64,000 nucleotides of DNA from Patescibacteria group bacterium (GTDB taxonomy: Bacteria; Patescibacteriota; Patescibacteriia; UBA10025; JAHIVO01): positions 9,295 to 73,294 of the forward strand of contig JBAZWB010000001.1 of assembly GCA_041660605.1 (NCBI GenBank), read 5' to 3'. Positions 8,094-63,028 of the stretch are shown here, in pieces (position 1 is the stretch's first letter; the number at the start of each line of letters is the position of its first letter). Under the pieces are notes generated by a model that saw nothing but the letters and a program-made list of their open reading frames with translations, ran no database searches and was not told where the DNA came from. Both the position numbers and the translations under genes were made by a program.

Positions 8094-8261
8094 AAATAAA
8101 ATGTTTTATTTCCTACGCCTCTTCAGTTTTGGCGATTTACGGTTTTAATGGCGTCAGATAGAATACGGCGCCAAAAAATAAGATAACTAGAATGAATATG
8201 AACACTAACTGACCATTTTTTACGTTATGCATTTTTGATTTTGCTATAAAAATTCAGTCTG

Positions 8262-11412
<3,151 letters not shown>

Positions 11413-11832: not shown

Positions 11833-12308
11833 CCATTTTATAGGCATTTTTACGTAATTTTCATTAAATTTATTAACACATATAGAATTACTAATTATTA
11901 TATGAACAAATTGACAAATTATTTTATCGGCGTTACTTTTTAATCAGATTGTAGGCGTTACATATTGTGATGTTCATTTCAGGAGGTATTTATGCCATTG
12001 AATACGCACTTAGGCCAAAGCACAAATGAATTGGTTATTATCGGAGCGCTGATGTGCCATGGAGATCCCCGCGTGGCTATACACGTTTTAGCTGTGACTG
12101 GAGATCCGGAGTTAGCAGTAAATACTGCCATAGACGCTAATCTCGTCTTTGATTCAATGTCCGACATAGCAGGCGATGACGATTGCGACTGAAGGTTCAC
12201 GAAGATTTTTTTGGCAAAATCAAACCTGGCGATTTAATTTGTCAGGTTTTTTATTAAATTAAATAATAAAACACCCCCGACCGGAATCCGGTCAGGGGCA
12301 TAGTTGAA

Positions 12309-13595: not shown

Positions 13596-13831
13596 TACAT
13601 CCTCTTTCTTTATATGGGTTTATTAAGGTTCCTTATTAATTTTTATTGTCTTATCTTACTATATTAGGCTAAAAAGGCAAATGTTATCTTTAGTGCCTAT
13701 TTTTTTATATCATTAAATTTCCCCGACATCTTTTGCAGGGGGCAGCTTTAATATTATGTATCAGCAGTAATATGCAGTTTGGCCTGGCCGGATAATTGTA
13801 TTTCTCTTCGGGCGGCAGAGCCTGCCGCGTT

Positions 13832-15895
13832 TTATAATTTTAATTCTCCGTAAAGCCTGTCAAACCGCTTAATCATTTGATAATCATCAAGACCGCCAGC
13901 AACCTCATCATACCTGGCTGGATTTGCGGTTCTTAATGTTTCTCGCGCTTTATCAAACAAGCTTTTTATATTTTCTTCTGACGGATTTCTGGGAATCAAA
14001 ATTTCATAATTTCTTAAATGGCTAGATTCTTTAAATAAATGTCTCATCTCCAGGGCATCTTCAGGTTTTGCCCAGGGTAAGAAGCCTGCAAATAATTGCG
14101 GGATAACTTCTCTCATGCGAACGCGGAATCTCGGACTTTCTTTAAAAAAATTTTCAAAATCCGGGCGCTGTTTTAATTCGTCGTAGACAAGACTTTGCAA
14201 ATTGCCATCTGCAAATATCATGATAGGGGCATGATGCTCTGAAAGAGTTTTGTCTTTAAGGTACTCTCTTAAAATTTGATGAAAGTTTATCTCAGGATGA
14301 TTCCGTGAAATTTTATATAATGTTTCGATCTCTGATATATCAGCGTCGTTGGCAATTTTTGCATATTCTTGCCCTATAGCTTCGGCAAACGGTTGGGGCA
14401 ATTCTCCCGGGACACCCTGCCGTACCATGACCTGGAGCGCCCGTGACGCAAAAAACTGACGCACCTCCCCCGGACTCACCAGATTTCCCGTTTGATTTGG
14501 TTTCTCTATTGCCAACTGGTAAAATGAGAGTATATGCCGAAGCTGTTCTTCCTTATGGGGTGATGTTGCCGACAACTCTTGTGCCATCCGCTGGACAATC
14601 GGCTCCATGCGAGTAAGAGTATAATCCAAATTTTCTATTCCCTTTGTTTCCAAATTTCGTTTAGCCCAAGTAGCATCCACGGTAGTCGCGTTTGCTCCGC
14701 CTTCCCGGGAAACAGTCACAAAAGTGTTCCAGGCGTGGCCCTCGCCGCCCATCTCGAGAGAACCCTGTTTTTTACGTTTGGGCGCGAATTCCTCCCTGCC
14801 AGACTCAAAAGTGCAGTAGGTGTCGCGCAAACGGTTAAATGAGGTTTGGTTCGCCTTGAGCGCCTCAAAAACCGCTTTTACCATGCTGGCGAAATTCCTG
14901 CATACGCCGTTGCCGTTCCATTCTACATCGCCGCGTTTTTTTAACCCTTCACTTAGCAGTTGGACGGTAGTGTTCTGGTCTTCTCTCGTTTTTTCCTGGC
15001 TTTCAGTTGATTTATCCGACCGAGTTTCGTTGTATTTGGTCAGATCAATGACCAATTGTGTGGCGAGCTCAATCGCTTGTTTCGGGGTCAATCCATCGAG
15101 GTGTTCAATATTCAATTGTTTGGATAGTTCTGCGCCCTCCTGGCCTAAGTATTCACTTATAAAAGCATAGAGGTGTTTATCCCAATCTTTTTCCTTTACA
15201 GTCGCTTGGTAGGTAGCCGTTCCAGGCACCTCGCCAGCCAGCTTTTCCTTCTGGGTGATATATTTTTCAACTGCAGGTGGAATCGGATGGGAGGTTTTCG
15301 AAGGGGCGACATGAGGGTTGAAGGCATCAAGATCCGAGAAGGCGATTTTTTCATCATCGCTGGCCTGGATTTCAAGCAGCGGATTGTGGGTTAATTGTTC
15401 ATTGTTTTCCCGGGACTGCAAATAATATTCCTTAGCCTGCTGCCAGGTATCGAAATCCCTGCATGTTGTACCGACAAAATAACCTGTTCGTGAATGGACC
15501 AGTCCGGGAAGAGTAACGCGATATTTACCGTCCGGCGTATCGTCAATTCTATAAAAACTTGCTGTGAATGTTTTTTTCAATGACATCCTTTCAAAAGTTT
15601 CTTTGGTGCGTTCCTTCGCCAGTTCAACGGCTTGTTCAGCCTCCATTCGCGTGGCAAACGCTTTTTTGGTTGTTCCGAAAATTGCTTCGCGTTGTTCATG
15701 AATAAGGCCGGGCAGGTTCACTTCAAAACCGCTTTCCGTTTCGTTGATATCGTATAAGCTCGATCCCGTTTTTATATCATTTGGCTGTAGTTCTCTTTGA
15801 GGCGCTTCAATAGCTACTGCAGCCTCTTCTTCTGGTTGAGGATTCTTTTCTTCCAACGGTTCCGGCCGGCGAATTTGTTGTTCTAGATTTTCCAT
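13832..15895 (-). CDS. Large hypothetical protein (687 aa) with two N-terminal copies of a roughly 50-aa repeat (FxVxLPGLxH...GTT)
   Basis: Long ORF; internal repeat ESGFEVNLPGLIHEQREAIFGTTKK / DGKYRVTLPGLVHSRTGYFVGTTCR; no recognised catalytic motif. Confidence 0.55.
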   Translation of the reverse strand: MENLEQQIRRPEPLEEKNPQPEEEAAVAIEAPQRELQPNDIKTGSSLYDINETESGFEVNLPGLIHEQREAIFGTTKKAFATRMEAEQAVELAKERTKETFERMSLKKTFTASFYRIDDTPDGKYRVTLPGLVHSRTGYFVGTTCRDFDTWQQAKEYYLQSRENNEQLTHNPLLEIQASDDEKIAFSDLDAFNPHVAPSKTSHPIPPAVEKYITQKEKLAGEVPGTATYQATVKEKDWDKHLYAFISEYLGQEGAELSKQLNIEHLDGLTPKQAIELATQLVIDLTKYNETRSDKSTESQEKTREDQNTTVQLLSEGLKKRGDVEWNGNGVCRNFASMVKAVFEALKANQTSFNRLRDTYCTFESGREEFAPKRKKQGSLEMGGEGHAWNTFVTVSREGGANATTVDATWAKRNLETKGIENLDYTLTRMEPIVQRMAQELSATSPHKEEQLRHILSFYQLAIEKPNQTGNLVSPGEVRQFFASRALQVMVRQGVPGELPQPFAEAIGQEYAKIANDADISEIETLYKISRNHPEINFHQILREYLKDKTLSEHHAPIMIFADGNLQSLVYDELKQRPDFENFFKESPRFRVRMREVIPQLFAGFLPWAKPEDALEMRHLFKESSHLRNYEILIPRNPSEENIKSLFDKARETLRTANPARYDEVAGGLDDYQMIKRFDRLYGELKL

Positions 15896-38174: not shown

Positions 38175-38403
38175 GGGGGTAGTTAATAGTAGGTAGTGAG
38201 TAGTAGGGAGAAGGTAATTAGCAGCTAATAATATATTAGCAGGCAATATTTAAGATAGGATTAAGCAATATACTACATAATTATAGCAGATTTGGCGGTG
38301 GATATATCGCTTTGACAAAACAGGCGTTCCGGTAGTAAGATTAACTCTTCTCAAAAAACAAACACAGAAAATGATATCTTTGAAAAATAGATTGGAGGAA
38401 GCA

Positions 38404-39873
38404 ATGTGCAGATTTCTTTATATCCACGATCCCAACAAAAGGATTGCTGGGATTGATATTACTGAAAGAATGTTTTGCGGACTTTCTGTACAACAACATG
38501 GCGGTCAAGATGGCGGTGGCATTGCCTATGTCGACGACGATGATGATGGCGGAAGTTTTGTTAAGGTTAGCAAGTTTTTTGGTCTGGTGGGAAGTCAGTA
38601 CGATCCCAATGGGGATAAGGGCAATCCATACAGGGATACATTTGCAAAATTGGCTAGAAGCAGGGCATTTAAGGCTTTGGGATTTCTGCGCTACTCGACG
38701 GCTGGTGCAGCCAACAATCTCATCCATTATCCGCCGCAGTATATTGATGAACTCAGCGTTGGTCGTGTGGTGCTGGCAATGAATGGGGATGTGCCAAATT
38801 TAGACAAACATCGTTCTGAGTTGACGAGCCAGGGAGTGGAGTTCTACTCGCAGAATGATAGCGAGTTTATGTTGCGATCACATTGCCACACCATGAGGTG
38901 CCAGGGCTGTACACGGGTAGCGGCTCTTCAGAAATACATGCAAGCAATACCAGGAGCTTATTCCGGGGTGGTCATGACAAAGGATAAAACGTATTTTGTC
39001 AGGGATCCCTGGGGTTTTCGGCCTTTTGTGGTCGGCTTGATTGATGGCAGTATCATCGTTGCCGCTTCCGAATCGTGTGCGCTTGATATGTTAGGAGCCA
39101 AGTTTCTATTTGAAGTGAAACGCGGCGAGATTATTGAGGTGGACGATGACGGCACGATGACTCATTACGATTTTCCCGGGCCGCTACCATTGCATTCCGC
39201 GCATTGCATTTTTTGCCTTGATTACTTCGCCAGCCCGGTCAGCAAGGTATTTATTGATGGCCGTGACATTGCCGATGTCCGTCAAAAAGGCTCATACTCT
39301 TTTGCGCTCGGCAGACAGCTCGCGGGCGAACACCCAGTTAGCGCGGATTTCGTAGCTTCATTGCCTTATTCCGGTGATCTAGCCGCAATTGGTTATTCTG
39401 AACAGTCCGGATTATCTTTTAAGGCGATATTCATCAGAAATATCTACGTGCCGCGTACGTTTATCATGTCACAGCAGCAAATCAGGGAGATGTTCGTTCG
39501 CCTTAAGTTTGCCTTAATGTCAGATGTTTTCCGTAAGCCAAGTCATCGGCGAGTCTGCCTGGTTGACGATTCAATCGTTCGGGCAACCACCATGCAGGGA
39601 ATCGTCGAAATACTTCGTGAGGCAGGTGCCGAAGAGATTCATCTGCGGATAAGTTTTCCGCCAATCACTGATCCATGTTTCATGGGCATAGCCATGCCGA
39701 CGAAACAGGAACTCATTGCCTCGTCAATGAGTGTGCCAGAGATACAGAGGCATCTCAAAGTAGATTCACTTGGTTATCTGTCTCCGGAGGGGGTAGCTAC
39801 CGTGTTGAAGCGTCGTGGTGACAATATTGAGGATTATTGCACTGCCTGCTACTCAGGGAAATATCCTATCTAA
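38404..39873 (+). CDS. purF: Amidophosphoribosyltransferase
   Basis: Met-Cys start (MCRF, Ntn-hydrolase nucleophile), QQHGGQDGGGIAYVD, PRTase motif VCLVDDSIVRATTM; start set at ATG 38404, not the track's 38371. Confidence 0.85.
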   Translation: MCRFLYIHDPNKRIAGIDITERMFCGLSVQQHGGQDGGGIAYVDDDDDGGSFVKVSKFFGLVGSQYDPNGDKGNPYRDTFAKLARSRAFKALGFLRYSTAGAANNLIHYPPQYIDELSVGRVVLAMNGDVPNLDKHRSELTSQGVEFYSQNDSEFMLRSHCHTMRCQGCTRVAALQKYMQAIPGAYSGVVMTKDKTYFVRDPWGFRPFVVGLIDGSIIVAASESCALDMLGAKFLFEVKRGEIIEVDDDGTMTHYDFPGPLPLHSAHCIFCLDYFASPVSKVFIDGRDIADVRQKGSYSFALGRQLAGEHPVSADFVASLPYSGDLAAIGYSEQSGLSFKAIFIRNIYVPRTFIMSQQQIREMFVRLKFALMSDVFRKPSHRRVCLVDDSIVRATTMQGIVEILREAGAEEIHLRISFPPITDPCFMGIAMPTKQELIASSMSVPEIQRHLKVDSLGYLSPEGVATVLKRRGDNIEDYCTACYSGKYPI

Positions 39874-39936: not shown

Positions 39937-39939
39937 AAT

Positions 39940-40030
39940 ATGAAGAAACGCCTACGGTTTTTCTTCATCGCATCTTTTCCCTAAGTTGTATCGCTCACCT
40001 TGGGACCTTATAACCCAAGGTTCGCGATGA
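39940..40030 (+). repeat. Roughly 90-nt repeat element, copy 1 (begins with the hairpin ATGAAGAAA-N11-TTTCTTCAT and ends ...CCTTGGG..CCCAAGGTTCGCGATGATTTATT)
   Basis: Near-identical to 45827-45960, same orientation, except for a 35-nt hairpin insertion in copy 2. Confidence 0.6.
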
Positions 40031-40352
40031 TTTATTATTTTTAATAGTTACGCCTTCCATCGGTTTTACCTCTAGCGAAAGTGGATGCGGCACGAAACCC
40101 GCGTGCTCGCGATTTTTTATAATTAATCTATAAAGGGGCTTGGTAGGATGAGTAGTCGATGCTTGGCATGATTATTAAATAGACATCTATTGATAATTGT
40201 GGGTGGTTTTATTAAGTGTGGTTTATAACTCAATAACGTCTGTCACTTTTTTAATTTGACATATTTGCTTTATTTTTGTTAAGATACGCTAATTAATGTA
40301 ATTGAAAGATCATTGTTATAACCTATAAAACTCTAGTTAGGAGGAGTTACAA

Positions 40353-41813
40353 ATGTCAGGAAAAAACGTACTGACAGCGCTAAGCAATCTGCCGGAACTC
40401 ATTCTGGCGATTATCCAAAAGCCGGATCTCATCATGGAGATTATCGGCAGGTGGAGGGAGCTGTTCAAGGTTCCCAGCAAGCAGAAACGCCAGCTGGGAG
40501 ACTTACTGCTGGATGAGCATCCCGCGATCACGCGTTTAGTGCTCAGGCAGGTCATGGCGGGTTCTCTGGATCTGAGCAAGTTTGTGACTGATTTGCCGGA
40601 AACGTATCAGGAAGATGCCAACCTCCGGATCACGGCTGTTTTGCTTTTCCTGTACGCGACCAACGATTCGCTTCTGAATAGGACGGACAAAGGATTTCCG
40701 ACTGTTGAATGGCTGGATCTCAAGGCACCTGAACCGACTCCCGTGGTGCGCGGAAAAAAGAAAACCGGCAAGAAAGGAAAGAAGACGCCTAAGGGTGCCG
40801 ACAATGCCAAGCCAGGCAAACCCGTGCCGGCCTCGAAACTGAAAGGCGTGAAGAAATTCGCGGACTTGCTGGCCAAATGCGGCAGCTTAGCAAATTTGCT
40901 GGCAACTTTCGAAGCGCACTCCGGCAAGGATGGGAAACTGACGCCATTTCTGCACGTCTGCGAAATATCAAACAGCACCTGGTATCAGTGGGCAAAAAAG
41001 GCGCACGCGATGGAAGCGGAAGCTGAAAAGGGTGGCGGAAAACCTGACAAGGGGTCGCCTGAAGGAGAAAAAGCCGTCCGTGGAAGGCTGGGAGAATTTA
41101 TCACCCAGCACAAAACGGCTGCCGAAGCCCTGAAAGTCCTGCAGTCTAAGCCGGAAGACAAAACGGTCCATGAATACGCAGAGTCGCTGGGCATTTCCGA
41201 CGCCAGTTACTACGCTTGGCCGGCCAAGCTGGTGGAATTAGCGGAAAAGGAGTCGAAAAAACCAGATGGAGGTCCTGGCAACGCCGACGACGGAACCGAT
41301 GTTACCTCTAAGGTGGTGGCCAAGCTTGGCAATAAAGCCAACGCCAAAGAGATGATTAAGGAAGCTGGGTCTATGTTGCAGCTGGCCATTAATCTTGGTG
41401 TCGCTGGCCTGACTACGTCCAATCTTGGTTATATTCTGCTCCACAAGTACGGTTTGCGCCTTAGTAAGGTGCTGGCGGAACCTGACGGAGCCGATGCGCC
41501 AGACGGTGGTAATCCTCCGGACACTGGCAAGAAGGGTAGCGCTGACACTACCTCACCGATCATGGCTGGGTTGTCTATATTGACTTCCGCAGATATGTCT
41601 GATGATCAGAGGCAGAAATTCTGCGAATTTGCCAGCGCTTTAGGCGCTAGTACAGCCAGTGAAGTTTTCGAAATCGTGGAGAAGGGAGTGAAGGATGATT
41701 TTCCCAAGGCGGCTGCGAAGTTTGTGGAAGCAGGGATTTTAACAGCTTCGTCAGCAGGGGAGCCTCCGGTGGAACAGAAATACTTTAAGTGGAAGTTCAA
41801 ACTGGTCCACTAG
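40353..41813 (+). CDS. Hypothetical protein (486 aa) with a Lys-rich low-complexity segment; first gene of a 3-gene operon
   Basis: TAGGAGGAG RBS; TTGACA-N17-TTAAGAT promoter at about 40253; KKKTGKKGKKTPKG tract. Confidence 0.5.
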   Translation: MSGKNVLTALSNLPELILAIIQKPDLIMEIIGRWRELFKVPSKQKRQLGDLLLDEHPAITRLVLRQVMAGSLDLSKFVTDLPETYQEDANLRITAVLLFLYATNDSLLNRTDKGFPTVEWLDLKAPEPTPVVRGKKKTGKKGKKTPKGADNAKPGKPVPASKLKGVKKFADLLAKCGSLANLLATFEAHSGKDGKLTPFLHVCEISNSTWYQWAKKAHAMEAEAEKGGGKPDKGSPEGEKAVRGRLGEFITQHKTAAEALKVLQSKPEDKTVHEYAESLGISDASYYAWPAKLVELAEKESKKPDGGPGNADDGTDVTSKVVAKLGNKANAKEMIKEAGSMLQLAINLGVAGLTTSNLGYILLHKYGLRLSKVLAEPDGADAPDGGNPPDTGKKGSADTTSPIMAGLSILTSADMSDDQRQKFCEFASALGASTASEVFEIVEKGVKDDFPKAAAKFVEAGILTASSAGEPPVEQKYFKWKFKLVH

Positions 41814-41968
41814 GATTCAACGTTATTTGATAGTAGTCTAAGTTCACGCTCTCTCGGGGGTGTGAACTTTTTTATTCCTCCCGCTTAAATATTTCATATT
41901 GACTTAAATTGTTTTATATAATAAGATTGGCTAATTATGTTCTTTTTCACAATCAATTGGAGGGGAAA

Positions 41969-42889
41969 ATGAGAATAAATTCCATTTTCAGTGTGGAAAC
42001 ATATCTCAAGAAACTTCTGGAAATTCTCCCCAAGTTTGACCAGGAATTATTCTGGAATGTTTTGGGGAAGCAGAGGTGGTTTCTGGAAATTATTGGCAGC
42101 CTGAAATTGCCGGCCTTATGCCTTCTGGACGATGAAAAATACTGGCGGTTTATCGGCAGCAATAACTGGCTGTCAGGTTTCAGCGGTGAGGTGACTTTTG
42201 ACGAGCTGGCAGCTGCTTTTCCAACCTGGTACCGCGATCCAGGCGCGTCTATGTCTGCTGAATCTTTTCAGGTCGCCCTGGGATTGTTTATCTGGCTGAA
42301 AACCGCCGAGCAAATGGGACTGGTAAGGCTGGTAAAATCCAAGCCTAAGCCGGTTAAAGACGGAAAAACATTGGCAGAAGAAGCGCAGTGCCGGGAAATT
42401 GCCGCTCGTTTCAACAAAGTGGGCTTGTGGAGGAAGGTTTTGGATGGCAAATTGCCTTTTGCCTCGTTGGACAGTTTACGCCAGTGGGTGAGTGAGCATC
42501 AGAACACATTTGGCTTGCCAGTCGACGTGGTGACAGCCTTCATTACCCAGAAGTCGGTTTGTTTCTCGCAGTCCGGCCGGATATTTTGGCGCCATCCCTG
42601 CGGATTTATTTTTACCGACGAGTGCTACCGCTCTTTCAGAAGTTTATTTATCCAGGATGATCCTGCGGCTGAAGCTGGATCGGTGGCGGACCAGTATCAC
42701 AGGCACGGGGGCAATGATACCAGGTGGAGCGATAGATTCTCCGAAGAATACGGTTTTGGCTGGTTTATCGTTACTACTCTGGCGGAATACTATTTTGGCA
42801 GCCTGGGCAAGGTACCGAAGACGCCACCGTTTTCAGAGGCAAGTGCGGTTATTGAGACGACCCTGCAGATCAGTCCGAACAAAATCTAA
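41969..42889 (+). CDS. Hypothetical protein, paralogous to the N-terminal extension of the downstream sigma factor
   Basis: GGAGGGG RBS before ATG 41969; shared blocks with the next gene (FWNVLGKQRWF/FWGFLSKQGWF; LFIWLKTAEQMGL/LFYWFRTAEKMEL; WRHPCGFIFTDECYR/WQHPSGLRLTEDAYCR). Confidence 0.5.
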   Translation: MRINSIFSVETYLKKLLEILPKFDQELFWNVLGKQRWFLEIIGSLKLPALCLLDDEKYWRFIGSNNWLSGFSGEVTFDELAAAFPTWYRDPGASMSAESFQVALGLFIWLKTAEQMGLVRLVKSKPKPVKDGKTLAEEAQCREIAARFNKVGLWRKVLDGKLPFASLDSLRQWVSEHQNTFGLPVDVVTAFITQKSVCFSQSGRIFWRHPCGFIFTDECYRSFRSLFIQDDPAAEAGSVADQYHRHGGNDTRWSDRFSEEYGFGWFIVTTLAEYYFGSLGKVPKTPPFSEASAVIETTLQISPNKI

Positions 42890-42989
42890 GCCTGTATCCA
42901 GCAATGGTACAGGCTTTTTTATTTGACGATTGCACGCTTATATATTAGAGTATCTTAATAAAGTTCTTTGATAAAAGAGGAGTAGAAAA

Positions 42990-45248
42990 GTGAAAATAAC
43001 TGATACGACAAGCGTTTTCTATTTTTTCCAGCAGTTGATGCAATCACTGCCAACATTGGAGGCGGGTGATTTTTGGGGATTCTTATCCAAACAGGGATGG
43101 TTTTCATCGATGGTGAGCAGCGTAATTGTCCCACCACCGGAGAGTTTTGGAACACAGGAATTCTGGCGACTGACCAACAATCAATTTTGGCTGATGGATG
43201 TTTTGGATGCAGCGAGCAATAACGGGAAATGCCTGGTTTCCGGTGAATTGCGCCGTTTGTTTCCGAAATCTCTGAGGTCATGCCGAACTCAAAAACCGGG
43301 GAAATCTTTTATCCTGGCATGCGAGCTTTTTTATTGGTTTCGCACTGCCGAGAAGATGGAGTTATTTAGCGTAATTCAGGCTGCCCAGACGCAAACGGCA
43401 TTGTACGTTTCGCTGGAATCCGGCAAGTCAGTTGAGATTAGCCGGGCGATTCAGGATATTTGGACGCAGTGCGGTTTATGGACTGAAGTGGCTAAGCGTC
43501 TCAATGCCACGATTGATGAGCTGCGTGAGTGGCTTAAGTGTTACGCGAATTTGCTGCAAGACGGCATTACCAGCGAGATCCTACGGCCTTTTCTGACCGG
43601 ACAGGCGGAAAAAACCGGGGACGGCTGCTGGCAGCATCCTTCCGGGTTACGTTTGACTGAAGATGCATATTGTCGACTGGTGTTCTTATCAGTAGAGCAG
43701 AACATCAGCGAAAGGGAGCTGATTGTCGCGACTTACGAGAATTATAAAGCCGGCGAGATGAAGCAGATATGCGAACATTTGTGCCTGTCTGCCACGCATT
43801 TTCTGGTTTTGGTGCAGTACTACCGCGGTTCGCTGACTAGGAACAATCTAGAAAGCATTAACAGTTTTTTTGATCCACCGCAGCCGGTTGACGGCTGCAG
43901 CGGCCTGGATCTGCTGTTGGCTTTATTAGAAAAAGCCGATGACTATCTTTTTCCCACGTTTTCCCGGATTATGAATCATGATGCCCGGGCACTTGCATTG
44001 TCTGAAGAAATTGAGCCAGTGCTCCGTTCAGTTCTGCGGCCGCTTAGTGATGACGATTTTTTTGAATATCTGCTGGAGCACGAATCTATTCTGCCTCTTC
44101 TGCCGAGAACCGAAAACGGTAGGACGGTGCCCTGGAGTGTTTTTTCGCAGTATGCCCCGGGAATATTAAGGCAGGTAGTCAGCCAGGAAGTTTTGCTCGA
44201 GGTAGCGCTTTGTTTTGTCTGGCTGTTTCACGCCCGCCTTACGCTTGATTTCAGCGTTTCGGTACCCGTGAAAAAGAGGAGAGCAAGGTCTGCGGCTGTT
44301 GTGGTTGATGTTGATATTGACGGGGATCTGGACGCGCACAGCGAAACGCAATATTCCCCGCGCCGCAGGCGAAAACATTCCAAATATGATATTCTCGAAA
44401 ATCCATCGCTGGATTTGTATTTAGTGGAGATTGGCCGGACTCCTTTGATTAACAGGGACGAGGAGGTGGCTTTGGCAAAGCGTATTCAGGATGGCGATAT
44501 TGAAGCTTTGCATAAGCTGGTGAAAGCCAACTTGCGTTTTGTCGTTTCTGTAGCCAAGTGTTTTCAAAATCAAGGTTTGCCATTAGCGGATCTGATTAAT
44601 GAGGGAAACATCGGGTTGATTAAAGCCGCCAAACGTTTTGACTGGACGCGCGGCTTCAAATTCATCAGCTACGCGGTTTGGTGGATTCGCCAGACTATTT
44701 GCCAGGCCTTGGCAGAGGGTGCCCGGACAATCAGATTGCCGTTGAACCGCATAGGTACCCTGCACAAGATCAACAAAACCAGGGAGAAATTGCTTCAAGA
44801 CCTTGGTCACCCTCCCAGTGATAAGCAAGTGGCCGATGAACTTGGGATGAAAGAGGAAGATGTGGCCTTTACTTTGATGGCGGGTAGTGGGTCGCTTTCG
44901 CTGGATAACACGCTCTCGACTTCCGGCGATAGTGAAACTACTTTGCTGGAAGTCATACCTGATACCGGTCCGGCTCCGACGCAGACAGTCATGGATGATA
45001 GTCTGCATGGCGAGATTATGGCAGCGCTTGATCAGCTGAGTGTGAGAGAAACAAGGATAATCAAGCTTTATTTCGGTATTGACCAGGAAAAAGCCCTGAC
45101 TCTGGAGGAAATTGGGGCTATTGAAAACGTGACTCGGGAAAGGGTCCGACAGATAAAAGAGGATGCGATTCGCAGGTTGCGCAGAGGGAAAGCGTCAAAA
45201 TTTTTACGGGCTTATTTCGATGATCAGGATAGGGAGGGAGCAAGATAG
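42990..45248 (+). CDS. rpoD: RpoD-like sigma-70 factor carrying a roughly 440-aa N-terminal extension
   Basis: C-terminal 290 aa show regions 1.2-4.2 (EEVALAKRIQDGD, ANLRFVVSVAKCFQNQGLPLADLINEGNIGLIKAAKRFD, YAVWWIRQTI, TLEEIGAIENVTRERVRQIKEDAIRRLRR); GTG start with AAGAGGAG RBS. Confidence 0.8.
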   Translation: MKITDTTSVFYFFQQLMQSLPTLEAGDFWGFLSKQGWFSSMVSSVIVPPPESFGTQEFWRLTNNQFWLMDVLDAASNNGKCLVSGELRRLFPKSLRSCRTQKPGKSFILACELFYWFRTAEKMELFSVIQAAQTQTALYVSLESGKSVEISRAIQDIWTQCGLWTEVAKRLNATIDELREWLKCYANLLQDGITSEILRPFLTGQAEKTGDGCWQHPSGLRLTEDAYCRLVFLSVEQNISERELIVATYENYKAGEMKQICEHLCLSATHFLVLVQYYRGSLTRNNLESINSFFDPPQPVDGCSGLDLLLALLEKADDYLFPTFSRIMNHDARALALSEEIEPVLRSVLRPLSDDDFFEYLLEHESILPLLPRTENGRTVPWSVFSQYAPGILRQVVSQEVLLEVALCFVWLFHARLTLDFSVSVPVKKRRARSAAVVVDVDIDGDLDAHSETQYSPRRRRKHSKYDILENPSLDLYLVEIGRTPLINRDEEVALAKRIQDGDIEALHKLVKANLRFVVSVAKCFQNQGLPLADLINEGNIGLIKAAKRFDWTRGFKFISYAVWWIRQTICQALAEGARTIRLPLNRIGTLHKINKTREKLLQDLGHPPSDKQVADELGMKEEDVAFTLMAGSGSLSLDNTLSTSGDSETTLLEVIPDTGPAPTQTVMDDSLHGEIMAALDQLSVRETRIIKLYFGIDQEKALTLEEIGAIENVTRERVRQIKEDAIRRLRRGKASKFLRAYFDDQDREGAR

Positions 45249-45250
45249 AC

Positions 45251-45290
45251 AGCCGGCATGATAGTTTATACTGTTATGACCGGCTTTTTT
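45251..45290 (+). terminator. Rho-independent terminator of the sigma-factor operon
   Basis: AGCCGGCATGATAG...CTGTTATGACCGGCTTTTTT. Confidence 0.5.
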
Positions 45291-45826
45291 ATTTCGGGAA
45301 ACCCCATTTAAGAAACGGTGTTTCCCGACGCCTTTCCCCAAAGTTAAGGCATTTATTTCGTCGCGCAGCCTGGCGGCTTTTTTTCGAGAAGCGTTTGATT
45401 GATCGTTCACTTTTTATGAAATAACCCTAATTGTGTGATTGAGAGCGGTGTCTTTATTCAAAAAAAATACCCTCATCAATAATCCCCTTACAGTTCGGGC
45501 ATGTCATCTCCTTGTGCCTCCGGAGACACTCCTACGCTGTTGGGCTATGGAGGATGATTGATGAGGGACGGGGTTAGCCTAAGAAAGCGGTGGTCGTGAA
45601 CGGGGCATCCATCGCGACCAAGCTTAGGCTCATGGCTCTCGAGAAGAGCTATTAATATTCTAGCATATTTTGACTGTCCCGCAAGATTGCACCCAACGGT
45701 CACCGGAGTTTTTTTGTGAGTGTGGATCCATTCAGTGTATTTAGTGACTTCGTGATGTTTTTTCTGACTTTTTAAGCGCAGTAATTTCGTCTCGTAACTG
45801 AGCCGCTTTTTCAAATTCCAAAATCT

Positions 45827-45960
45827 ATGAAGAAACACCTACGGTTTTTCTTCATCGCTACTTTTCCCTAAGTTGTATCGCTCACCTTGGGACCTCCCGC
45901 CCGACTGCTTCACATTCGAAGCGGGCGCGGTATAACCCAAGGTTCGCGATGATTTATTTT
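45827..45960 (+). repeat. Repeat element copy 2 (with a 35-nt GC-rich hairpin insertion); overlaps and extends the 3' end of uvrB
   Basis: Aligned base by base with 39940-40030; the uvrB reading frame continues through it. Confidence 0.6.
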
Positions 45961-47959
45961 GATTTCTAATTGCTGCAAGCTGGTCTCTCAATAAAGCTGC
46001 TTTCTCGAAATCTAGATTCTTTGCTGCTATTTCCATTCTAGACTCAAGGTCTTCAATGAGATGCGGGATTTCTTCTTTGGGAATATTTTTGAAAAATGAC
46101 TGGGAGGAATCTTCCTCCTTAAGTCTTCCGCCGGCTAAGCGCGATTCTTTGATAGCTTTTATAATGGATTGCGGAGTAATGTGATGTTTTTTATTATAAT
46201 CTTCCTGCATTTTTCTGCGCCGCACGGTTTCTTTTATTGCCCTGTCCATTGAGCCGGTCACCTTGTCCGCATACATGATGATGTGCCCTTCGAGATGCCG
46301 TGCGGCGCGGCCCATGGTCTGCATCAGCGCGGTTTCCGAGCGCAGATAACCTTCTTTATCGGCATCCAGGATGGCAATCAGGGAAACTTCCGGCAGATCC
46401 AGCCCTTCACGCAAAAGGTTGATCCCCACCACTACGTCAAACTTCCCTAAGCGCAGATCACGCAGTATTTCCAGCCTTTCCATAGTGTCCACTTCAGAGT
46501 GCAAATACTGGACTTTTACGTCCAAATCAGCCAGATATTCCGTCAGATCTTCAGACATGCGCTTGGTCAGGGTGGTAACCAGCACCCGCTGTTTTTTCGC
46601 CACGGTTTTTTTAATTTCTCCTAAGAGGTCATCAATTTGATTTTTTGTCGTCCGGATTTCAATAGTCGGATCCAGCAAGCCGGTTGGCCGGATTAACTGT
46701 TCGACGATCTGGTCTGAAATTTCCTTCTCATATTCACTGGGCGTAGCGGAAGCATAGATAGTTTGCCTGGCGCGCTTTTTAAATTCTTCAAAAGTCAGCG
46801 GCCGATTGTCCATGGCAGCCGGCACGCGGAAGCCGAAATTAACCAGCGTTTCCTTGCGTGAACGGTCGCCGAAGTACATGCCTTTGATCTGCGGCAGGGT
46901 CATGTGCGATTCGTCTATGAACAGCAGGAAGTCTTTAGGGAAGAATTCAAACAGTGTATTTGGTGGAAGTCCCGGCCGGCGCCCGTCGAAATAGCGCGAG
47001 TAATTTTCAATGCCATTGCAAAAACCGATTTCCCGGATGGTTTCAATGTCATAGCGGGTCCGCTGTTCCAGCCGCTGGGCTTCCACTAGTTTGTTTTCGC
47101 TCTGGAATTTTTTGACCTGCTCTTCCATGTCGTGCTGGATTTGCTCCAGCGCGTTTTTCATCATCTCGTCCGGCGCCAGATAGTGCCGCGCCGGGTAAAT
47201 ATCCACTTCCGGCAGCTGAGCAACTATTTTGTTCGTTAGAGAATCAACTTCAGAGATTTTTTCTATCTGGTTGCCGAAGAATTCAATCCGATAAAAATTG
47301 TTTTCTGAGAAAGGCGGGAAGACTTCCAGGATTTCGCCCAGCACGCGGAAACGGCTGCGCCACAAATCAGTCTGGTTCCTCTGATACCGGTTGTTGACCA
47401 GCGCGTGCAGGATAATGTTGCGGTCGTAGTTTTGCCCGGATTTGAGATTTATCACATCGCGCTTGTATTCCGTGGGCGAGCCGAGGCCGTAAATGCAGGA
47501 AACCGAGGCCACGATGATCACGTCGTTTCTGGAGAGCAGGGCCTGCGTTGAGGCATGCCGCAGGCGGTCGATTTCTTCGTTGAGCTGAGTCTCCTTTTCT
47601 ATGTAGGTGTCGGTTCTGGGTATATAGGCTTCAGGCTGGTAGTAGTCGTAATAGGAAACAAAATAATTGACGGAATTATCAGGGAAAAAATCCTGGAATT
47701 CGCTGGCCAGCTGGGCAGCCAGCGTTTTATTATGCGAAATAATCAGCGTCGGTTTCTGCAATTGCTGGATGACGTTGGCCATGGTGAAGGTTTTCCCTGA
47801 GCCGGTTACGCCTAATAATGTCTGGTTGCGATGGCCTTTTTTTAGGCCAGCCACGAGCTTTTTAATGGCTTGAGGCTGATCTCCGGTTGGTTTGAATGGT
47901 GACTTTAATTTAAACTTCATAAGTAAATATACTATAACTTTGGCGGTCGGATTCGTCAA
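45839..47959 (-). CDS. uvrB: Excinuclease ABC subunit B
   Basis: Walker [10 protein letters not shown], helicase motifs, and C-terminal UVR motif [12 protein letters not shown]; the last roughly 45 codons are supplied by the repeat element. Confidence 0.9.
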
Positions 47960-47966
47960 AGGTTGG

Positions 47967-48102
47967 CCCCGTTAGAAAATTAGCCAATGGCCGTTTGATA
48001 ATAAACAATAATTTTATTTGAACCTTCTTTAATAACCAAAAAGATGTTTTATAATTTTCTAACGGGGTTGACAAAAAGAGGAAACCGTAGTAGGTTGTAG
48101 TG
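47967..48102 (+). repeat. Palindromic element copy 4 (terminal repeats CCCCGTTAGAAAATT / AATTTTCTAACGGGG, about 107 nt) with outward TTGACA-N17-TAGGTT
   Basis: Terminal repeats at 47967-47981 and 48053-48067; TTGACA 48068-48073; interior is the reverse complement of the copy-3 interior (for example ...CCTTCTTTAATAACCAAA.AGATGTTTTATAATT). Confidence 0.55.
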
Positions 48103-48129
48103 TTTAAAAGTGGTAAAATATATTTAACT

Positions 48130-51024
48130 ATGTCAAGGGAAACTTTTCATCCTAATTATGCCGATGCAGTTAAAGATGAATCAAATGATTCTAATTCTTT
48201 TGATAAAAAAAAGAATGTACATGGCAGTAAGTTGCAGGAAATTTTAAAATATTTTGACAGAACATTGGTACCGGGTCTGGATTTGAACGCAGTGTATCCA
48301 GAGTACGTAGGAAAAGAAGCTGATGTACAGGGTATAGATCAAGAGAAAGAGAAGGCGCTACTGGATCATTTAAATACTCAATATAAAGCCCTGACGGGGG
48401 GTCATGAAGTCCTCACAGAGATGAGCGAAGTTGAGCAACAGAAAGTTGGAGGATTAATAGAGGAGGTTGTTGAACAATATTGGAAGCCCACCATATCAAT
48501 GCACACGAAAGAGGCATTAGCAGATTTTATAGATAATCTCATTGTTCAACTCAATCAGGAAGGGGTTGAGCAGGTTTTGGAAAAAAGCTTAGATTTAAAC
48601 GAGAAAGGGAATATTAATAAAGTGGGTCATTGGATTAAACTTTTAGAAGAGCTTTATTGGCGTTCTGAGCGAATTGATCCGGAATCGAGAGAAGAGTACT
48701 TTCGGGATTTTGAATCTGAAGATGCCGTCGTGAAAAAGATAGTTGGAGAATTGATGGAAAAAATTAAGAACGAATCCGAGGGAAACTATTTTTTGAATGA
48801 ACGCATTAAATATCTCGTCGAGTGTATTAAAAAGGGAGAAGTCCCTGAAGTCGACACCTTACCGTTTGATTTTGATTTTGGGCACTATGCTAAATGGCAA
48901 GAAAATGGGAGACTCGCGGTGACACCAATGGGTGACGATGGTGATATTGAGGATGATATTGAAATGTATACAAAACTTGAGAATACTTTTTTAGAGGAAA
49001 TGGGTGCAACTCACAGCGATAAAGAAAAGAGCGCACTTCAAAAAGAAATGCAGGAAACACTCAGTGCGGTTGCCAATAAAATCCGTACTTCATATTACTT
49101 TGAGGAGTTGAAGCCATATCAACTCCGTTCTTTTACTGATCAGGTTGGGGACGATAAAGATAAATCATCTGATCAATCGCTATATGATTTTGAATACCTG
49201 CATTCACGTCAGATGAGGAAACAAATTGAAAAAGATTTTGGGATAGTGGTTGAGTATATTAATTTGCCAGTCCGGAATAAATTTTTTCAATTTATTAAAG
49301 AGAAAAATATTAAAGATATCGAACCAGCAAAGAATTTTTCCAAAAAATATGGGGAAGCAGGGCTGGTAACATTTTTATCTTTGGCACAGGATCCGACAAT
49401 AGGCAACAAACTGGTAGAACTTGGTAATCGCCTGCCTGAAGATGATGCTTATCGATTATTTGATCAGTATCATAGACTCATCACAAGCGCTAGCAGCAAA
49501 GCAGAAAAAATCCAAACGCTTCTTGCGCAGCAATACCCAGAAATAAATTTATCCAGGGAAGAACTTTCTGATTGTTTCATGGTACGCGCAAAGGATTTAT
49601 TAAATGAAAGCTTCAATAAAATGGAGGATGGAAAGCTAGATATTGATCAGGTTCTTGCAGAACTTAATCAGGAAACGGCAATACAAGAAGTTTTACGTGT
49701 TCAGTTCATGAAGATTGCCGAGCTTCTATCGAAAGATGATGTTGACTTGGAGACATATAACCATACGCAAGAAATGGTTATAAAAAGTATCGGAGAGTCA
49801 GGTCTAGTGAGCGAGGCGGCATATTTGCGTGCTTTAAACGCCATGGGCAAACTAAAACCCATGCCGGAATTATACTGGAAAGTTGACCGGGAGCCGGAAG
49901 AGTACAATAAACGTTTGGGTGTTAATGTACCGGAGGTACTGAAAAGAGTAGGCCAAGGTGGCAACGAAAAGACCTTATTGGAATTCGGTCCGGGTAGCGG
50001 TCTGGCCAAGCACAAACTGCGGTTATCCGGTGCGGCTGATAATTTTACGGAATTTGCCATGAGCGACGCGCTTTATTACGATTTAGCTGAACCAATAAAA
50101 CATTTAATTGATTTTGATAAAATCCAGGCCAAACTGGGCAAAGAATTAAATGCACAGGACAAGCAATCATTAATTGAGTATATAAAACGGACTATCGTCA
50201 TAAAAGTCGGCCAGACAGCTGTTGATAAGATTGAGTATGATCAGGAGTTTCAAAGTGATATTGCTCATAGTCCCAATGCCCTGAAAGAGTATATAAAAAA
50301 ATCCGGACATAAAGTTTCTCTTGCCGACACGGTGCCGACTGATCAAGCCGTAGAAACTCCGGATGGCCCAATATATGCTGAAAAATTTGAAGTAGCAAAA
50401 CAATCTCCAGCTTGGCAGGAAGCACGACGGCTTTTCATGGGTGAAGTGGAAAAATATTTGCGGGACGATTTTGATGAGCAGGATGTTTATGAAATATTGA
50501 ATGCCCATCCAGCCGGAATCATGATCGGGGACTTTAATGACGTTACAAAACTGAAAAATGACCAATTGGATTTTGCCCTGGGCGTCAGGTCGACGGTCTA
50601 TGTGGAGCGCGAGCAATATCCTGAATTTATTAAAAACGTGATAGCAAAATTAAAAGATGGAGGAATCTACATTGACGATAATGTGAGGGAAAATTTCGGC
50701 CGGTACTATCGCTTAGCAGAACTGAAGCAGGTGCAGGAGGACTTAGTTGAGCTGAAACGAAAAGGTGGGATAGATTTTGATGTCACTATTTCTCTGGTTA
50801 TCGGGCGTGGCGTGGCAGAAGAAGATTATAAAAAGGACGATGCGCCTATCGCCGTCGTTATTGCTAAGGGTAAAGCTGATCTATCAGTCGTTTCTGAAAA
50901 TTTATTGAAGTCCAGCAAGTTAGTCGGTTTGGACGAAGTGGTTGCTAATGGCGATTATCTGAAAAGCCTGGATCAGTCTGGTCGGGTTAAAAAATCAATT
51001 AATACATTACCACGAGCCGCTTAG
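48130..51024 (+). CDS. Large hypothetical protein (964-974 aa; track start is the GTG at 48100)
   Basis: Long low-GC ORF; possible SAM-binding motif I-like stretch KTLLEFGPGSGLAKHKL; otherwise no motif recognised. Confidence 0.55.
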   Translation: MSRETFHPNYADAVKDESNDSNSFDKKKNVHGSKLQEILKYFDRTLVPGLDLNAVYPEYVGKEADVQGIDQEKEKALLDHLNTQYKALTGGHEVLTEMSEVEQQKVGGLIEEVVEQYWKPTISMHTKEALADFIDNLIVQLNQEGVEQVLEKSLDLNEKGNINKVGHWIKLLEELYWRSERIDPESREEYFRDFESEDAVVKKIVGELMEKIKNESEGNYFLNERIKYLVECIKKGEVPEVDTLPFDFDFGHYAKWQENGRLAVTPMGDDGDIEDDIEMYTKLENTFLEEMGATHSDKEKSALQKEMQETLSAVANKIRTSYYFEELKPYQLRSFTDQVGDDKDKSSDQSLYDFEYLHSRQMRKQIEKDFGIVVEYINLPVRNKFFQFIKEKNIKDIEPAKNFSKKYGEAGLVTFLSLAQDPTIGNKLVELGNRLPEDDAYRLFDQYHRLITSASSKAEKIQTLLAQQYPEINLSREELSDCFMVRAKDLLNESFNKMEDGKLDIDQVLAELNQETAIQEVLRVQFMKIAELLSKDDVDLETYNHTQEMVIKSIGESGLVSEAAYLRALNAMGKLKPMPELYWKVDREPEEYNKRLGVNVPEVLKRVGQGGNEKTLLEFGPGSGLAKHKLRLSGAADNFTEFAMSDALYYDLAEPIKHLIDFDKIQAKLGKELNAQDKQSLIEYIKRTIVIKVGQTAVDKIEYDQEFQSDIAHSPNALKEYIKKSGHKVSLADTVPTDQAVETPDGPIYAEKFEVAKQSPAWQEARRLFMGEVEKYLRDDFDEQDVYEILNAHPAGIMIGDFNDVTKLKNDQLDFALGVRSTVYVEREQYPEFIKNVIAKLKDGGIYIDDNVRENFGRYYRLAELKQVQEDLVELKRKGGIDFDVTISLVIGRGVAEEDYKKDDAPIAVVIAKGKADLSVVSENLLKSSKLVGLDEVVANGDYLKSLDQSGRVKKSINTLPRAA

Positions 51025-61804: not shown

Positions 61805-62040
61805 AAACCTTATCAAGAGAGAGCTGAGGGTTCTGGCCCAACGACGCTCCGACAACCATCCTACGCTTTTCATTGCATTCAAAGCTTTGGATGGCGTAGC
61901 CCTAGTAATGAGGCTACGCCACGAGTTAATTAAGTGAAAGAGCAGCAGGAACGGTGCCAAGTCCAGCCTAGCCATTTACGGATGGCCGGGATAGATAAGA
62001 GATAAAACAATCTCTTAGATAATAAGAGATTTTTTGTTAC
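61805..62040 (+). ncRNA. SAM-I (S-box) riboswitch with an enlarged P3/P4 region and a terminator expression platform
   Basis: CTTATCAAGAGAGAGCTGAGGGTTCTGGCCCAACGACGCTCCGACAACC matches CUUAUCAAGAG.GG.GGAGGGA.UGGCCC..GAA.CC.GCAACC; GGTGCCAAGTCCAGC matches GGUGCUAAAUCCAGC; P1 3' strand GATAAGAG; terminator ATCTCTTA-GATAA-TAAGAGAT + TTTTTT at 62011-62036. Confidence 0.75.
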
Positions 62041-62065: not shown

Positions 62066-63028
62066 ATGGGCCAATCATTTTCTGAAAAAGTTAAGGATCC
62101 TTCGTATTATCCGGTATTATACGAAATGTTGCCTCCACCGGGAAACGGCAACCATTCGGCCTCGCAGGCTTTTCTGAAAGTCCTGGACAAGATTTTTCAT
62201 AATGTGCGGATTGATGCCATTAATATTCCGGAGATTCATGAGGAAAAAGGCCAGTCTGGCCAAAAAGAAGTTCAGACTTTTGACAAAGCCGTTCCGCGCC
62301 AGTTTGCCCGAGAGATATTAAAACACCGGAAAGATTTTGAAGTCATCATCAACCACGTAGTTGTGCACCAGCCGCCGGAGATATTTCATCAATGGGCAGC
62401 GGAAACATATGATGAATTTGGCCTGAAAAATTTAATTTTGGTAGGCGGCGAATCGCCGAAAATCAAATACCCCGGTCCGACTGTTACTGAGGCTGCAGAA
62501 TATCTGCGCGACAAATACGTTTCCGGGGTGAAAGATAATAAATGCGCGTTGCTTGGCGGCATTACCATCCCGACCAGGCGGCACGCGCAGGTTGAACAGG
62601 ATGAGCCGGCCCGTTTGGTGAAGAAAAGCCAGAGCGGCATAGAATTTTTTACCAGCCAGGTAATCTACGAGGCAGAAACGACGAAAAGCCTCTTGAGCGC
62701 CTATAACACCTATTGCCATAAAGCCGGCGTAAAACCAAAAAGGATTTTTATCAGCTTCGCGCCGGTTTCTACGCCAAAAGACATTAAATTTCTCCGCTGG
62801 CTGGGAGTCAGCATTCCCGAAGAGGTTGAGCAGCATCTGCTGGAAGGCTGGGTCGGCATGGGTTGGCGTTCGGTGGAATTATGCCAGGAAATATTGTCGG
62901 ATATTTTAAATCATATCAGAAAATTCAAGCTGAAAGTGCCGATCGGCATAAATGTCGAGCATATCATGAAGTATAATGTGGAATTGTCCAAGGAGCTGCT
63001 GGTAAATTTATCCGAGACTTTGAAATAA
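62066..63028 (+). CDS. Methylenetetrahydrofolate reductase-like protein (MetF family)
   Basis: Co-linear similarity to MetF (VLYEMLPP, VGGESP, QVIYEAET...FISFAPVSTPKDIKFLRWLGVSIPEEV); downstream of a SAM riboswitch. Confidence 0.6.
   Translation: MGQSFSEKVKDPSYYPVLYEMLPPPGNGNHSASQAFLKVLDKIFHNVRIDAINIPEIHEEKGQSGQKEVQTFDKAVPRQFAREILKHRKDFEVIINHVVVHQPPEIFHQWAAETYDEFGLKNLILVGGESPKIKYPGPTVTEAAEYLRDKYVSGVKDNKCALLGGITIPTRRHAQVEQDEPARLVKKSQSGIEFFTSQVIYEAETTKSLLSAYNTYCHKAGVKPKRIFISFAPVSTPKDIKFLRWLGVSIPEEVEQHLLEGWVGMGWRSVELCQEILSDILNHIRKFKLKVPIGINVEHIMKYNVELSKELLVNLSETLK

Follow-up and report, generated by a model that had tools for sequence, protein, structure and literature searches.

We analysed a 64-kb stretch of DNA (the window) from a Patescibacteria bacterium (candidate phyla radiation, CPR; Kerfeldbacteria-like) with a genome of approximately 1 Mb. 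A cluster of three genes in the window ends with the gene for a 752-amino acid RpoD/SigA-type sigma factor, probably the principal sigma factor of the genome, in which an extension of approximately 440 amino acids precedes the core. The core is that of an ordinary sigma-70; what is new is the family of accessory modules that forms the extension and the split-or-fused relation of this family to two classes of sigma factor. The extension comprises a module A, a module B, and a second copy of A (A′). In this clade a module A or A′ always lies directly in front of the sigma core, in sigma factors of two classes, and A-B is a detachable unit that is either fused before an A′-sigma protein or encoded by a separate gene just upstream. 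Such comparisons of sequence and gene order suggest that the A-B family is a previously undescribed sigma-factor partner, and our best reading, to which we assign a probability of roughly 0.45, is that A-B may act as an accessory module, associated with the sigma factor in cis or in trans.

Core and gene model of the sigma factor

All three open reading frames (ORFs) of the first-pass annotation were found: gene 1 (486 amino acids), gene 2 (306 amino acids from an ATG), and the sigma gene (752 amino acids from a GTG), all in the same direction (Table 1). A Pfam search of the sigma protein identified region 1.2 (PF00140, residues 473 to 503, E = 7e-13), region 2 (PF04542, 510 to 579, 4e-17), region 3 (PF04539, 591 to 664, 2e-14), and region 4 (PF04545, 679 to 731, 1e-14), all above the cut-offs; the four regions that mark sigma-70 proteins of groups 1 and 2 were thus complete and in order. 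Among solved structures, a sequence search of PDB placed the protein nearest to primary SigA of Firmicutes, at 228 bits compared with 195 bits for RpoS. These results bear out the earlier description of a complete group-1-like core with regions 1.2 to 4.2 at the COOH terminus, where it takes up 280 or so residues. Its description as very close to the RpoD consensus was, however, overstated. None of the NCBIfam equivalog cut-offs for RpoD or RpoS was reached (NF004208 RpoD, 270.8 versus 555; NF006666, 252 versus 572; TIGR02394 RpoS, 240.7 versus 378.7), and region 2.4 reads RQTICQALAE rather than the canonical RQAITRAIAD. This variant is common to a subfamily of short sigma factors, and the nearest sequence relatives of the core were short sigma-70 proteins of 284 amino acids (62 to 65% identity over 88 to 91% of a 312-residue query). 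The region 4.2 helix TRERVRQI is kept, and the protein passes the sigma70-ECF superfamily model TIGR02937 (106 versus 42.9). It is labelled "primary sigma factor" by JGI and "RpoD/SigA" by NCBI, and we found no second sigma gene in the window.

The length of the protein differs between public gene calls. The PGAP pipeline of NCBI calls a product of 285 amino acids (MFA6097949.1) that starts at an ATT codon, Ile468, and leaves approximately 1.4 kb of coding sequence unannotated, whereas JGI calls all 752 amino acids, on a contig of 904,720 bp. Were the shorter call right, the upstream 1.4 kb would be a separate or decaying A-B gene that reads in frame with the core, a model in keeping with the 284 amino acids of the nearest core homologues and with the call of only 299 amino acids for the corresponding sigma factor at a related locus, L012. 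We nevertheless regard it as scarcely credible. The ATT codon has no Shine-Dalgarno sequence, and neither does any other candidate start among sigma codons 380 to 480, including every ATG, GTG, and TTG near the core, whereas the GTG at 42990 is preceded by AGAGGAG 7 nt upstream. Extension and core are unbroken by a stop codon, so that a ribosome starting at 42990 makes the 752-amino acid product; the other two frames of the extension contain 22 and 30 stops. The coding signature is continuous, with a GC1/2/3 of 0.53/0.40/0.53 in the extension, similar to that of the core, and a codon usage close to that of the core (Kullback-Leibler divergence of 0.14, versus 0.55 and 0.60 out of frame). The protein is homologous to gene 2 from its first residue onward. 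In addition, the in-frame fusion is kept in L012, and A′ lies within the sigma ORF in two further relatives, L006 and L013. The 752-amino acid product is therefore the gene model that we favour on these sequence features, and an additional, internally initiated short form of the sigma factor may also be made. Given the calls of 285 and 299 amino acids, the extension is invisible in the main public annotation.

Modules of the N-terminal extension

A profile hidden Markov model (HMM) of the A-B family matched the sigma protein twice. The first domain spanned residues 7 to 290 and the whole profile (352 bits), and the second, A′, spanned residues 306 to 434, corresponding to profile positions 6 to 134 (independent E = 1.4e-6); gene 2 scored 328 bits with the same model. 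The extension had been recognised before as unlike anything in canonical RpoD, and that holds, but it is not a single domain plus filler: it is made up of A, B, a second copy of A, and a charged linker that is predicted to be disordered. In the same way, the earlier account of a paralogy to gene 2 over approximately 300 residues was sound but had missed the repeat of A next to the core. The basic stretch KKRRARS (residues 428 to 434) closes the range of A′ just ahead of the linker, and the predicted local distance difference test (pLDDT) score was below 50 across residues 381 to 470. The sigma factors of L006 and L012 likewise have a basic linker.

Module A, with approximately 130 residues, is rich in tryptophan and has a net charge of −1 to +4, so it is not acidic. 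Module A of the window sigma factor aligned with the N-terminal modules of family proteins P0128 to P0132 (E = 2e-12 to 3e-8). Module A′ had homologues in the N-terminal module of the L006 sigma factor (E = 3e-10) and in module A of both P0132 and P0130 (E of approximately 5e-6). Module B was 34% identical to the free-standing protein P0126 (E = 1e-23) and is kept in the fused sigma factor of L012.

No known family accounted for these modules. Pfam gave no match for the first 470 residues of the sigma protein or for any part of gene 2, and searches of Pfam, NCBIfam, PHROG, PDB, and BFVD returned nothing for the A-B family. With regard to sigma region 1.1, there was no match to Sigma70_r1_1, no fold match, and no acidic A module; likewise, the N-terminal domain showed no sequence or fold likeness to known anti-sigma families (zf-HC2/RskA, FlgM, Rsd/AlgQ, and the SpoIIAB type). 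The proposal that the N-terminal 440 residues lack a region 1.1 counterpart thus withstood Pfam, NCBIfam, PDB profile, and fold searches.

Relationship of gene 2 to the fused copy

BLASTP aligned residues 1 to 281 of the gene 2 protein with residues 1 to 284 of the sigma factor with 24% of the residues identical (E = 6e-24, much better than chance would give), which confirmed the paralogy of gene 2 to the first 300 or so residues of the extension; the four motif blocks that had been quoted as shared are visible in this alignment. The first-pass annotation had further called the extension duplicated as a stand-alone gene. Gene 2 is indeed a paralog, but not the product of a local or recent duplication. 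Its orthologs, P0124 (E = 9e-41) and P0123, are both free-standing, and a neighbour-joining tree of the family placed gene 2 with these two proteins in 196 of 200 bootstraps and as sister to A-B of the adjoining sigma factor in none of the 200. The window thus contains two anciently separated paralogs, which belong to different sub-lineages. The tree also contained two sister pairs of a fused and a free member, namely the fused A-B of the window with free P0126 (window and L005), and the fused copy of L012 with free P0134 (L012 and L013). Fusion to, or fission from, the sigma factor has therefore happened at least two times. The possibility that gene 2 is a frameshifted remnant of an rpoD duplication, which had been raised at the outset, was ruled out: the gene is intact, its orthologs are free-standing, and no remnant of a sigma core follows it.

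Distribution of the family and gene order in relatives

A word-indexed search of 5.8e9 proteins with the 440-residue extension retrieved only the protein itself. An exhaustive HMMER profile search of 1.84 billion cluster representatives (threshold, E ≤ 1e-3) yielded 13 proteins or clusters, most of which are free-standing and 254 to 309 amino acids long. Four of the 13 (P0128, P0129, P0131, and P0132; 432 to 443 amino acids) are fusions of module A to a FliA-like sigma factor that has regions 2 to 4 and is without region 1.2. Outside the sigma regions, Pfam revealed nothing significant in any of the 13 members. The A-B family is lineage-specific and confined to one CPR subclade. A genome scan of GTDB with the purF-like protein that precedes the cluster as an anchor found only one metagenome-assembled genome (MAG), and metagenome scans with the gene 1 motif and with B-A′ of the window and L012 were empty. 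Three scans of viral contigs, which detect close relatives only, found no relatives, and PHROG contained none for gene 2 or the N-terminal extension.

At the loci examined, a sigma gene was fused or adjacent to the family member in all cases except L005 and L008, whose contigs are too short to tell, and L011. The order polA, holA, S20, M15, purF-like gene, cassette, and uvrB is common to the window and its syntenic relatives. At L006, which shares polA, holA, S20, M15, and the purF-like gene (76% identity) with the window, a homologue of gene 1 (443 amino acids) is followed by P0124 (A-B) and then by an A′-sigma protein of 429 amino acids, which has only A′ in front of the core and whose gene starts 2 nt after the stop codon of P0124. 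L012 (Patescibacteria MAG GCA_028711455.1) is also syntenic, with the purF-like protein (66% identity), uvrB, and a 974-amino acid neighbour (48%); here the ORF of the sigma gene (12079-14244, minus strand), called as 299 amino acids, is open for 721 amino acids, with B and A′ before the core. L013 has a different neighbourhood, and yet a gene 1 homologue (E = 3e-13), P0134 (an N-terminal segment plus B, 271 amino acids), a terminator, and an A′-sigma gene follow one another. A cassette of a gene-1-like protein, A-B, and A′-sigma is thus conserved and recurs in related Patescibacteria, with A-B fused to the sigma factor in two genomes (window and L012) and encoded by a separate gene in two others (L006 and L013). 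For the FliA-like class, A plus the sigma core is followed by a free A-B protein at L004 and L007, with uvrB (76% identical) next at L007, and is preceded by a gene-1-like protein at L003 and L015, with uvrB directly after at L015.

Three further observations concern these loci. The FliA-like A-sigma genes of L007 and L015, in adjoining uvrB, occupy the same neighbourhood as the window cassette. At L011, an ORF of 265 amino acids (6934-7731) with a match to module A (E = 6e-5) lies two genes from uvrB and is accompanied by genes for an HATPase_c_3 protein and a sigma-54-activator-like AAA+ protein. The record for L006 and L010 (GCA_964415025.1, CAYPXF010000023.1) is titled "uncultured Gammaproteobacteria bacterium" and yet is syntenic with the Patescibacteria window; the label is probably wrong.

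Structure models and fold searches

To gain insight into the folds, we obtained AlphaFold2 models. The model of gene 2, based on a family multiple sequence alignment (MSA) of 10 sequences, had a mean pLDDT of 82.8 and a predicted template modelling score (pTM) of 0.53, and it showed two domains, largely helical, with a linker of low confidence between them; the conserved WxHPxG motif is carried by a small beta-hairpin. In the model of the full-length sigma factor, confident folds were obtained for the core and for A together with the first part of B, with a pLDDT of approximately 90 for A and B. The models thus indicate that A and B are likely to be real folded domains. Foldseek searches with the gene 2 model revealed nothing in PDB (best E = 0.8) or BFVD, and a profile search of PDB sequences with the A-B family revealed nothing below E = 0.04. 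We also considered whether module B is a degenerate form of sigma regions 3 and 4. In hhalign, residues 119 to 269 aligned weakly with sigma positions 122 to 265 (probability 3.2%, E = 0.014), and matches of the A-B profile to RpoS in PDB had E values of approximately 1; this relationship was not adopted.

Gene 1

Gene 1 had been described as a lysine-rich protein of no recognisable kind that leads the set. That description stands, but it had missed the membership of the gene in the conserved cassette, with homologues located upstream of sigma or A-B genes at L006, L013, L003, L015, and L008. Residues 121 to 175 carry a net charge of +13. In the window protein and its counterparts at L013 (6153-7265) and L008 (482-2275), we observed repeated helical units of approximately 55 residues, AGS..L.INL...NL.YI..K.LGIK..VL, parted by lysine-rich linkers that resemble histone tails; no Pfam family matched them. 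The transposase-type helix-turn-helix (HTH) model HTH_Tnp_1 (PF01527) covered just 31 residues and scored 23.9 bits, short of its cut-off of 24.1, and NF033516 reached 22.3 against 160. An IS3-type transposase OrfA or HTH_Tnp_1 protein was therefore rejected as the identity of gene 1, given these scores below the cut-offs and the lack of a DDE or integrase gene or catalytic domain in the cluster.

Transcription signals and flanking repeats

The three genes had been taken for an operon served by a promoter and a terminator of its own. A promoter-like site and a terminal hairpin were indeed found at the two ends of the cluster, but hairpins with U-runs also follow genes 1 and 2 (Table 1; z scores are relative to shuffled sequences). 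Since a hairpin with a U-run, a promoter-like site, and a Shine-Dalgarno sequence (GGAGGAG before the ATG of gene 1, GGAGGGG before that of gene 2) accompany every gene, a simple operon is not established. From these signals, the cluster looks like three tandem transcription units, perhaps with read-through, and the promoter-like site of gene 1 is putative, being a consensus match only. At L013, a hairpin and then a promoter lie in the same order between the B-module gene and the sigma gene.

Two direct repeats, compared with none expected in 64 kb, bracket the cassette 5887 nt apart. Copy 2 supplies the last 43 or so codons of uvrB and thereby a C-terminal tail that is not present in UvrB of L012. 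In view of the synteny of the cassette with L006 and L012, we take the repeats to be a small repeat element rather than attachment (att) sites; they could mediate deletion of the cassette. Both long intergenic regions that flank the cluster were searched with Rfam at a permissive threshold, and neither contained a known RNA family.

Proposed mechanism and alternative explanations

The repeated fusion and fission is the reason for our view that A-B would associate physically with A′-sigma, the simplest route being that the homologous modules A and A′ pair with each other. A-B would then serve the sigma factor or the holoenzyme as an accessory or regulatory component, in cis where it is fused and in trans where it is free. 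Given that the window sigma factor already carries A-B, the free gene 2 protein, whose gene looks to be transcribed separately, would bind at the same docking surface, in competition with or in addition to the built-in copy, and so might modulate the sigma factor in trans. The lysine-rich gene 1 protein with its HTH-like repeats would be a third member of the cassette and plausibly a DNA-binding partner. A trans-acting partner had been proposed from the window by itself, and the idea is strengthened by the finding that the module is fused to the sigma factor in some genomes and encoded by an adjacent gene in others. A more specific version, in which a CPR-specific sigma architecture uses homotypic A and A′ docking domains to tether a regulatory A-B in cis or in trans for two sigma classes, appears possible but on the doubtful side. 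If it is true, free A-B in the window organism, a paralog under a promoter of its own, would compete with the built-in copy and so tune the main sigma factor in a genome with almost no transcription factors.

Several points weigh against association of A-B with the sigma factor as we propose it. Fusion and fission denote a functional link, not necessarily physical contact. The full-length sigma model, with a pTM of 0.31, was uninformative on docking, and A′ was of low confidence in it, with a single-sequence MSA in that part. The family is tiny, so that the statistics rest on approximately 10 loci, several of them on short contigs. At L011, the nearest relative of the window by UvrB, an A-module protein is encoded near uvrB, although the surrounding 10 kb contain no sigma gene. 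Moreover, the sigma cores of the window and L006 are 47% identical, compared with 76% for the neighbouring purF-like proteins, an unusually fast change for a housekeeping sigma factor.

Given the adjacent, co-oriented genes, the classic layout of a sigma factor and its anti-sigma factor, the extension might instead hold the sigma factor inactive until a signal leads to removal or displacement of the extension, for instance through cleavage within the linker, with free A-B as an anti-sigma factor. N-terminal pro-sequences are an established principle in sigma biology. Autoinhibition by region 1.1 is likewise established, and its regulatory role is known (PMC12478191). The disordered linker of approximately 45 residues between A′ and region 1.2, rich in arginine and lysine, would be accessible to a protease, but the cassette contains no protease gene; nor do the modules resemble a known anti-sigma family or fold, or an acidic DNA mimic. 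Permanent fusion of an inhibitor to the probable main sigma factor, twice independently, is also harder to explain than fusion of a cofactor. Because a permanently fused form is present in the probable main sigma factor of two lineages, we favour a cofactor over an inhibitor and consider autoinhibition unlikely. Somewhat less probable still is the absence of any partnership, with the A-B and gene 1 proteins being DNA-binding regulators of the ordinary HTH kind, whose genes lie beside sigma genes by chance, and fused B adding upstream DNA contacts. The cassette might, finally, be an integrated islet of 5.9 kb from a mobile element or phage, with its own alternative sigma factor and att-like repeats at the 3′ end of uvrB. 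Precisely the three genes lie between the direct repeats of approximately 110 nt, one of which overlaps the 3′ end of uvrB; gene 1 shows HTH matches of the transposase and terminase small-subunit types; and L011, close as it is by UvrB, has no sigma gene at the locus. However, the cassette occupies the same position, between the purF-like gene and uvrB, in L006 and L012, where flanking proteins are only 66 to 76% identical, and it is therefore old and vertically inherited. It contains no integrase, recombinase, or transposase catalytic domain, its GC content equals that of its surroundings, the viral searches described above, limited to close relatives in the case of the contig scans, were empty, and the repeat looks like a small hairpin element. 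We accordingly hold a mobile origin to be very improbable, and retain as preferred the reading of A-B as an accessory module that may associate with the sigma factor.

Transcription control in Patescibacteria is almost unexplored, and their genomes are tiny with few recognisable regulators. Repeated switching of a protein family between a sigma-fused form and an adjacent gene is a classic pointer to physical partnership, and gene 2, listed by NCBI as "hypothetical protein WCV50_04070", becomes a candidate sigma cofactor or regulator.

Comparison with known sigma factors and sigma-binding proteins

Firmicute SigA structures (PDB 7l7b, 8x6f, and 7ckq) were the top PDB sequence matches of the window sigma factor (228 to 216 bits). 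The two share the order of regions 1.2, 2, 3, and 4, the lack of an insert between regions 1.2 and 2.1, and TRERVRQI. Unlike SigA, the window protein carries 470 residues (A, B, A′, and linker) in place of an acidic region 1.1 of approximately 70 to 100 residues, and it differs in region 2.4 and in scoring below the NCBIfam RpoD cut-offs, as described above. The short RpoD/SigA-like sigma factors of approximately 284 amino acids from Zixibacteria, Limisphaerales, and others are the nearest relatives of the core and share the region 2.4 variant ILQALAE, but have no N-terminal extension and no A, B, or A′. Region 1.1 of Escherichia coli sigma70 and Bacillus subtilis SigA is likewise N-terminal to region 1.2 via a flexible linker; it is, however, a small acidic DNA mimic, whereas the larger, tryptophan-rich, and non-acidic module A matched it in neither sequence nor fold.

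Clade-specific N-terminal additions of functional importance have been described for the mycobacterial principal sigma factor (PMC10011835). That region is intrinsically disordered and without a free-standing paralog, whereas the window extension consists of modules that are predicted to be folded and that also occur as separate genes. Crl, which acts on sigmaS, and RbpA, which acts on actinobacterial SigA and SigB, are both small and bind to sigma factors of group 1 or 2, thereby modulating holoenzyme formation or activity. Their action, as generally understood, provides a functional model for free A-B, although they have no homology to it. Neither is a paralog of a domain of its sigma factor, and we know of no sigma-fused form of Crl or RbpA; the split-or-fused pattern of A-B is therefore distinctive in comparison.

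MzaA of the MZA anti-phage system resembles the window sigma factor in its length of approximately 700 amino acids, its C-terminal sigma core, and its long N-terminal region. Assignment of the window protein to this defence system was rejected, given that NF041931 scored 247.5 against 800 and matched at positions 475 to 716 of 726 only, with the N-terminal two-thirds of the model unmatched; with PADLOC, only positions 427 to 663 of 683 were matched, and the neighbouring genes had no Mza matches. Cyanobacterial sigma-70 families are told apart by accessory domains located N- or C-terminal to the core (PMC11119718); these belong to another phylum and are unrelated to A, B, and A′. Literature searches for sigma factors of CPR bacteria or Patescibacteria found no relevant paper.

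Feature coordinates and genomic context

The window contains genes for 23S and 5S rRNA and two tRNAs as well as polA, holA, uvrB, and purD, and is chromosomal DNA. Its UvrB is 75 to 79% identical to proteins of MAGs labelled "Patescibacteria group bacterium" and "Candidatus Kerfeldbacteria". The 5.9-kb segment that contains the cluster is 100% identical in a separate Logan assembly.

Table 1 Coordinates of the genes, protein modules, and putative signals of the cluster within the 64-kb window
Feature	Position	Strand	Basis or remarks
Direct repeat, copy 1 (two-hairpin element, approximately 110 nt)	39939-40049	.	Repeat search; between purF-like gene and gene 1
Promoter-like site before gene 1, TTGACA-18-TAAGAT	40256-40285	+	Consensus scan, 10/12; TG before second hexamer
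Gene 1	40353-41813	+	Lysine-rich, repeated HTH-like helical units; first cassette member
Terminator-like hairpin after gene 1	41840-41869	+	13-bp stem and U-run; −17.1 kcal/mol, z −4.8
Two overlapping promoter-like sites before gene 2, TTCATA-18-TATAAT and TTGACT-17-TAAGAT	41893-41927	+	Consensus scan
Gene 2, free-standing A-B protein	41969-42889	+	Module A approximately residues 1-125, module B approximately 135-285
Terminator-like hairpin overlapping the gene 2 stop codon	42888-42916	+	11-bp stem and U-run; −18.0 kcal/mol, z −5.0
Promoter-like site before sigma gene, TTGACG-17-TAGAGT	42923-42951	+	Consensus scan
Sigma gene	42990-45248	+	
Module A, sigma residues 1-130	42990-43379	+	Family HMM; pLDDT approximately 90 in full-length model
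Module B, sigma residues 145-290	43422-43859	+	HTH-like helices, WxHPxG beta-hairpin, YYRGS end
Module A′, sigma residues 306-434	43905-44291	+	Second HMM domain; internal duplicate of A beside core
Disordered linker, sigma residues 435-472	44292-44405	+	AAVVVDVDIDGDLD, then SPRRRRKHSKY; basic and acidic stretches
Sigma-70 core, sigma residues 473-752, regions 1.2/2/3/4 and stop codon	44406-45248	+	Pfam, NCBIfam, PDB sequence search
Terminator hairpin after sigma gene	45251-45285	+	Followed by U-run; −21.7 kcal/mol, z −7.0
Direct repeat, copy 2	45826-45971	.	35-nt insertion; overlaps last 43 or so uvrB codons (minus strand)

The purF-like gene upstream of the cluster (38371-39873) encodes a divergent amidophosphoribosyltransferase-like protein with GATase_6/7 domains, a PRTase motif, and the N-terminal sequence MCRFLY, which is kept at 66 to 76% identity in relatives with a syntenic cassette; purD also lies within the window. 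To our knowledge, purine-synthesis genes such as these are not typical of CPR genomes. Downstream of uvrB, the 974-amino acid protein (48100-51024) has no Pfam match, and its 48% identical counterpart at the same position of L012 is 1017 amino acids long and is encoded beside a TrmB-family regulator.

On the minus strand at 7971-11406, the 23S rRNA gene spans 3141 nt compared with a model of 2925 nt, and thus contains one or more insertions, and is followed by the 5S rRNA gene. No 16S rRNA gene or spacer tRNA genes were found upstream of the 23S rRNA gene, where purD is the next gene approximately 900 nt away; the rRNA genes are therefore unlinked. A match to the SAM-I riboswitch (61807-62001; 51.6 bits, 195 nt compared with a 108-nt model) precedes an ORF at 62066-63028 that has a weak MTHFR-like match.

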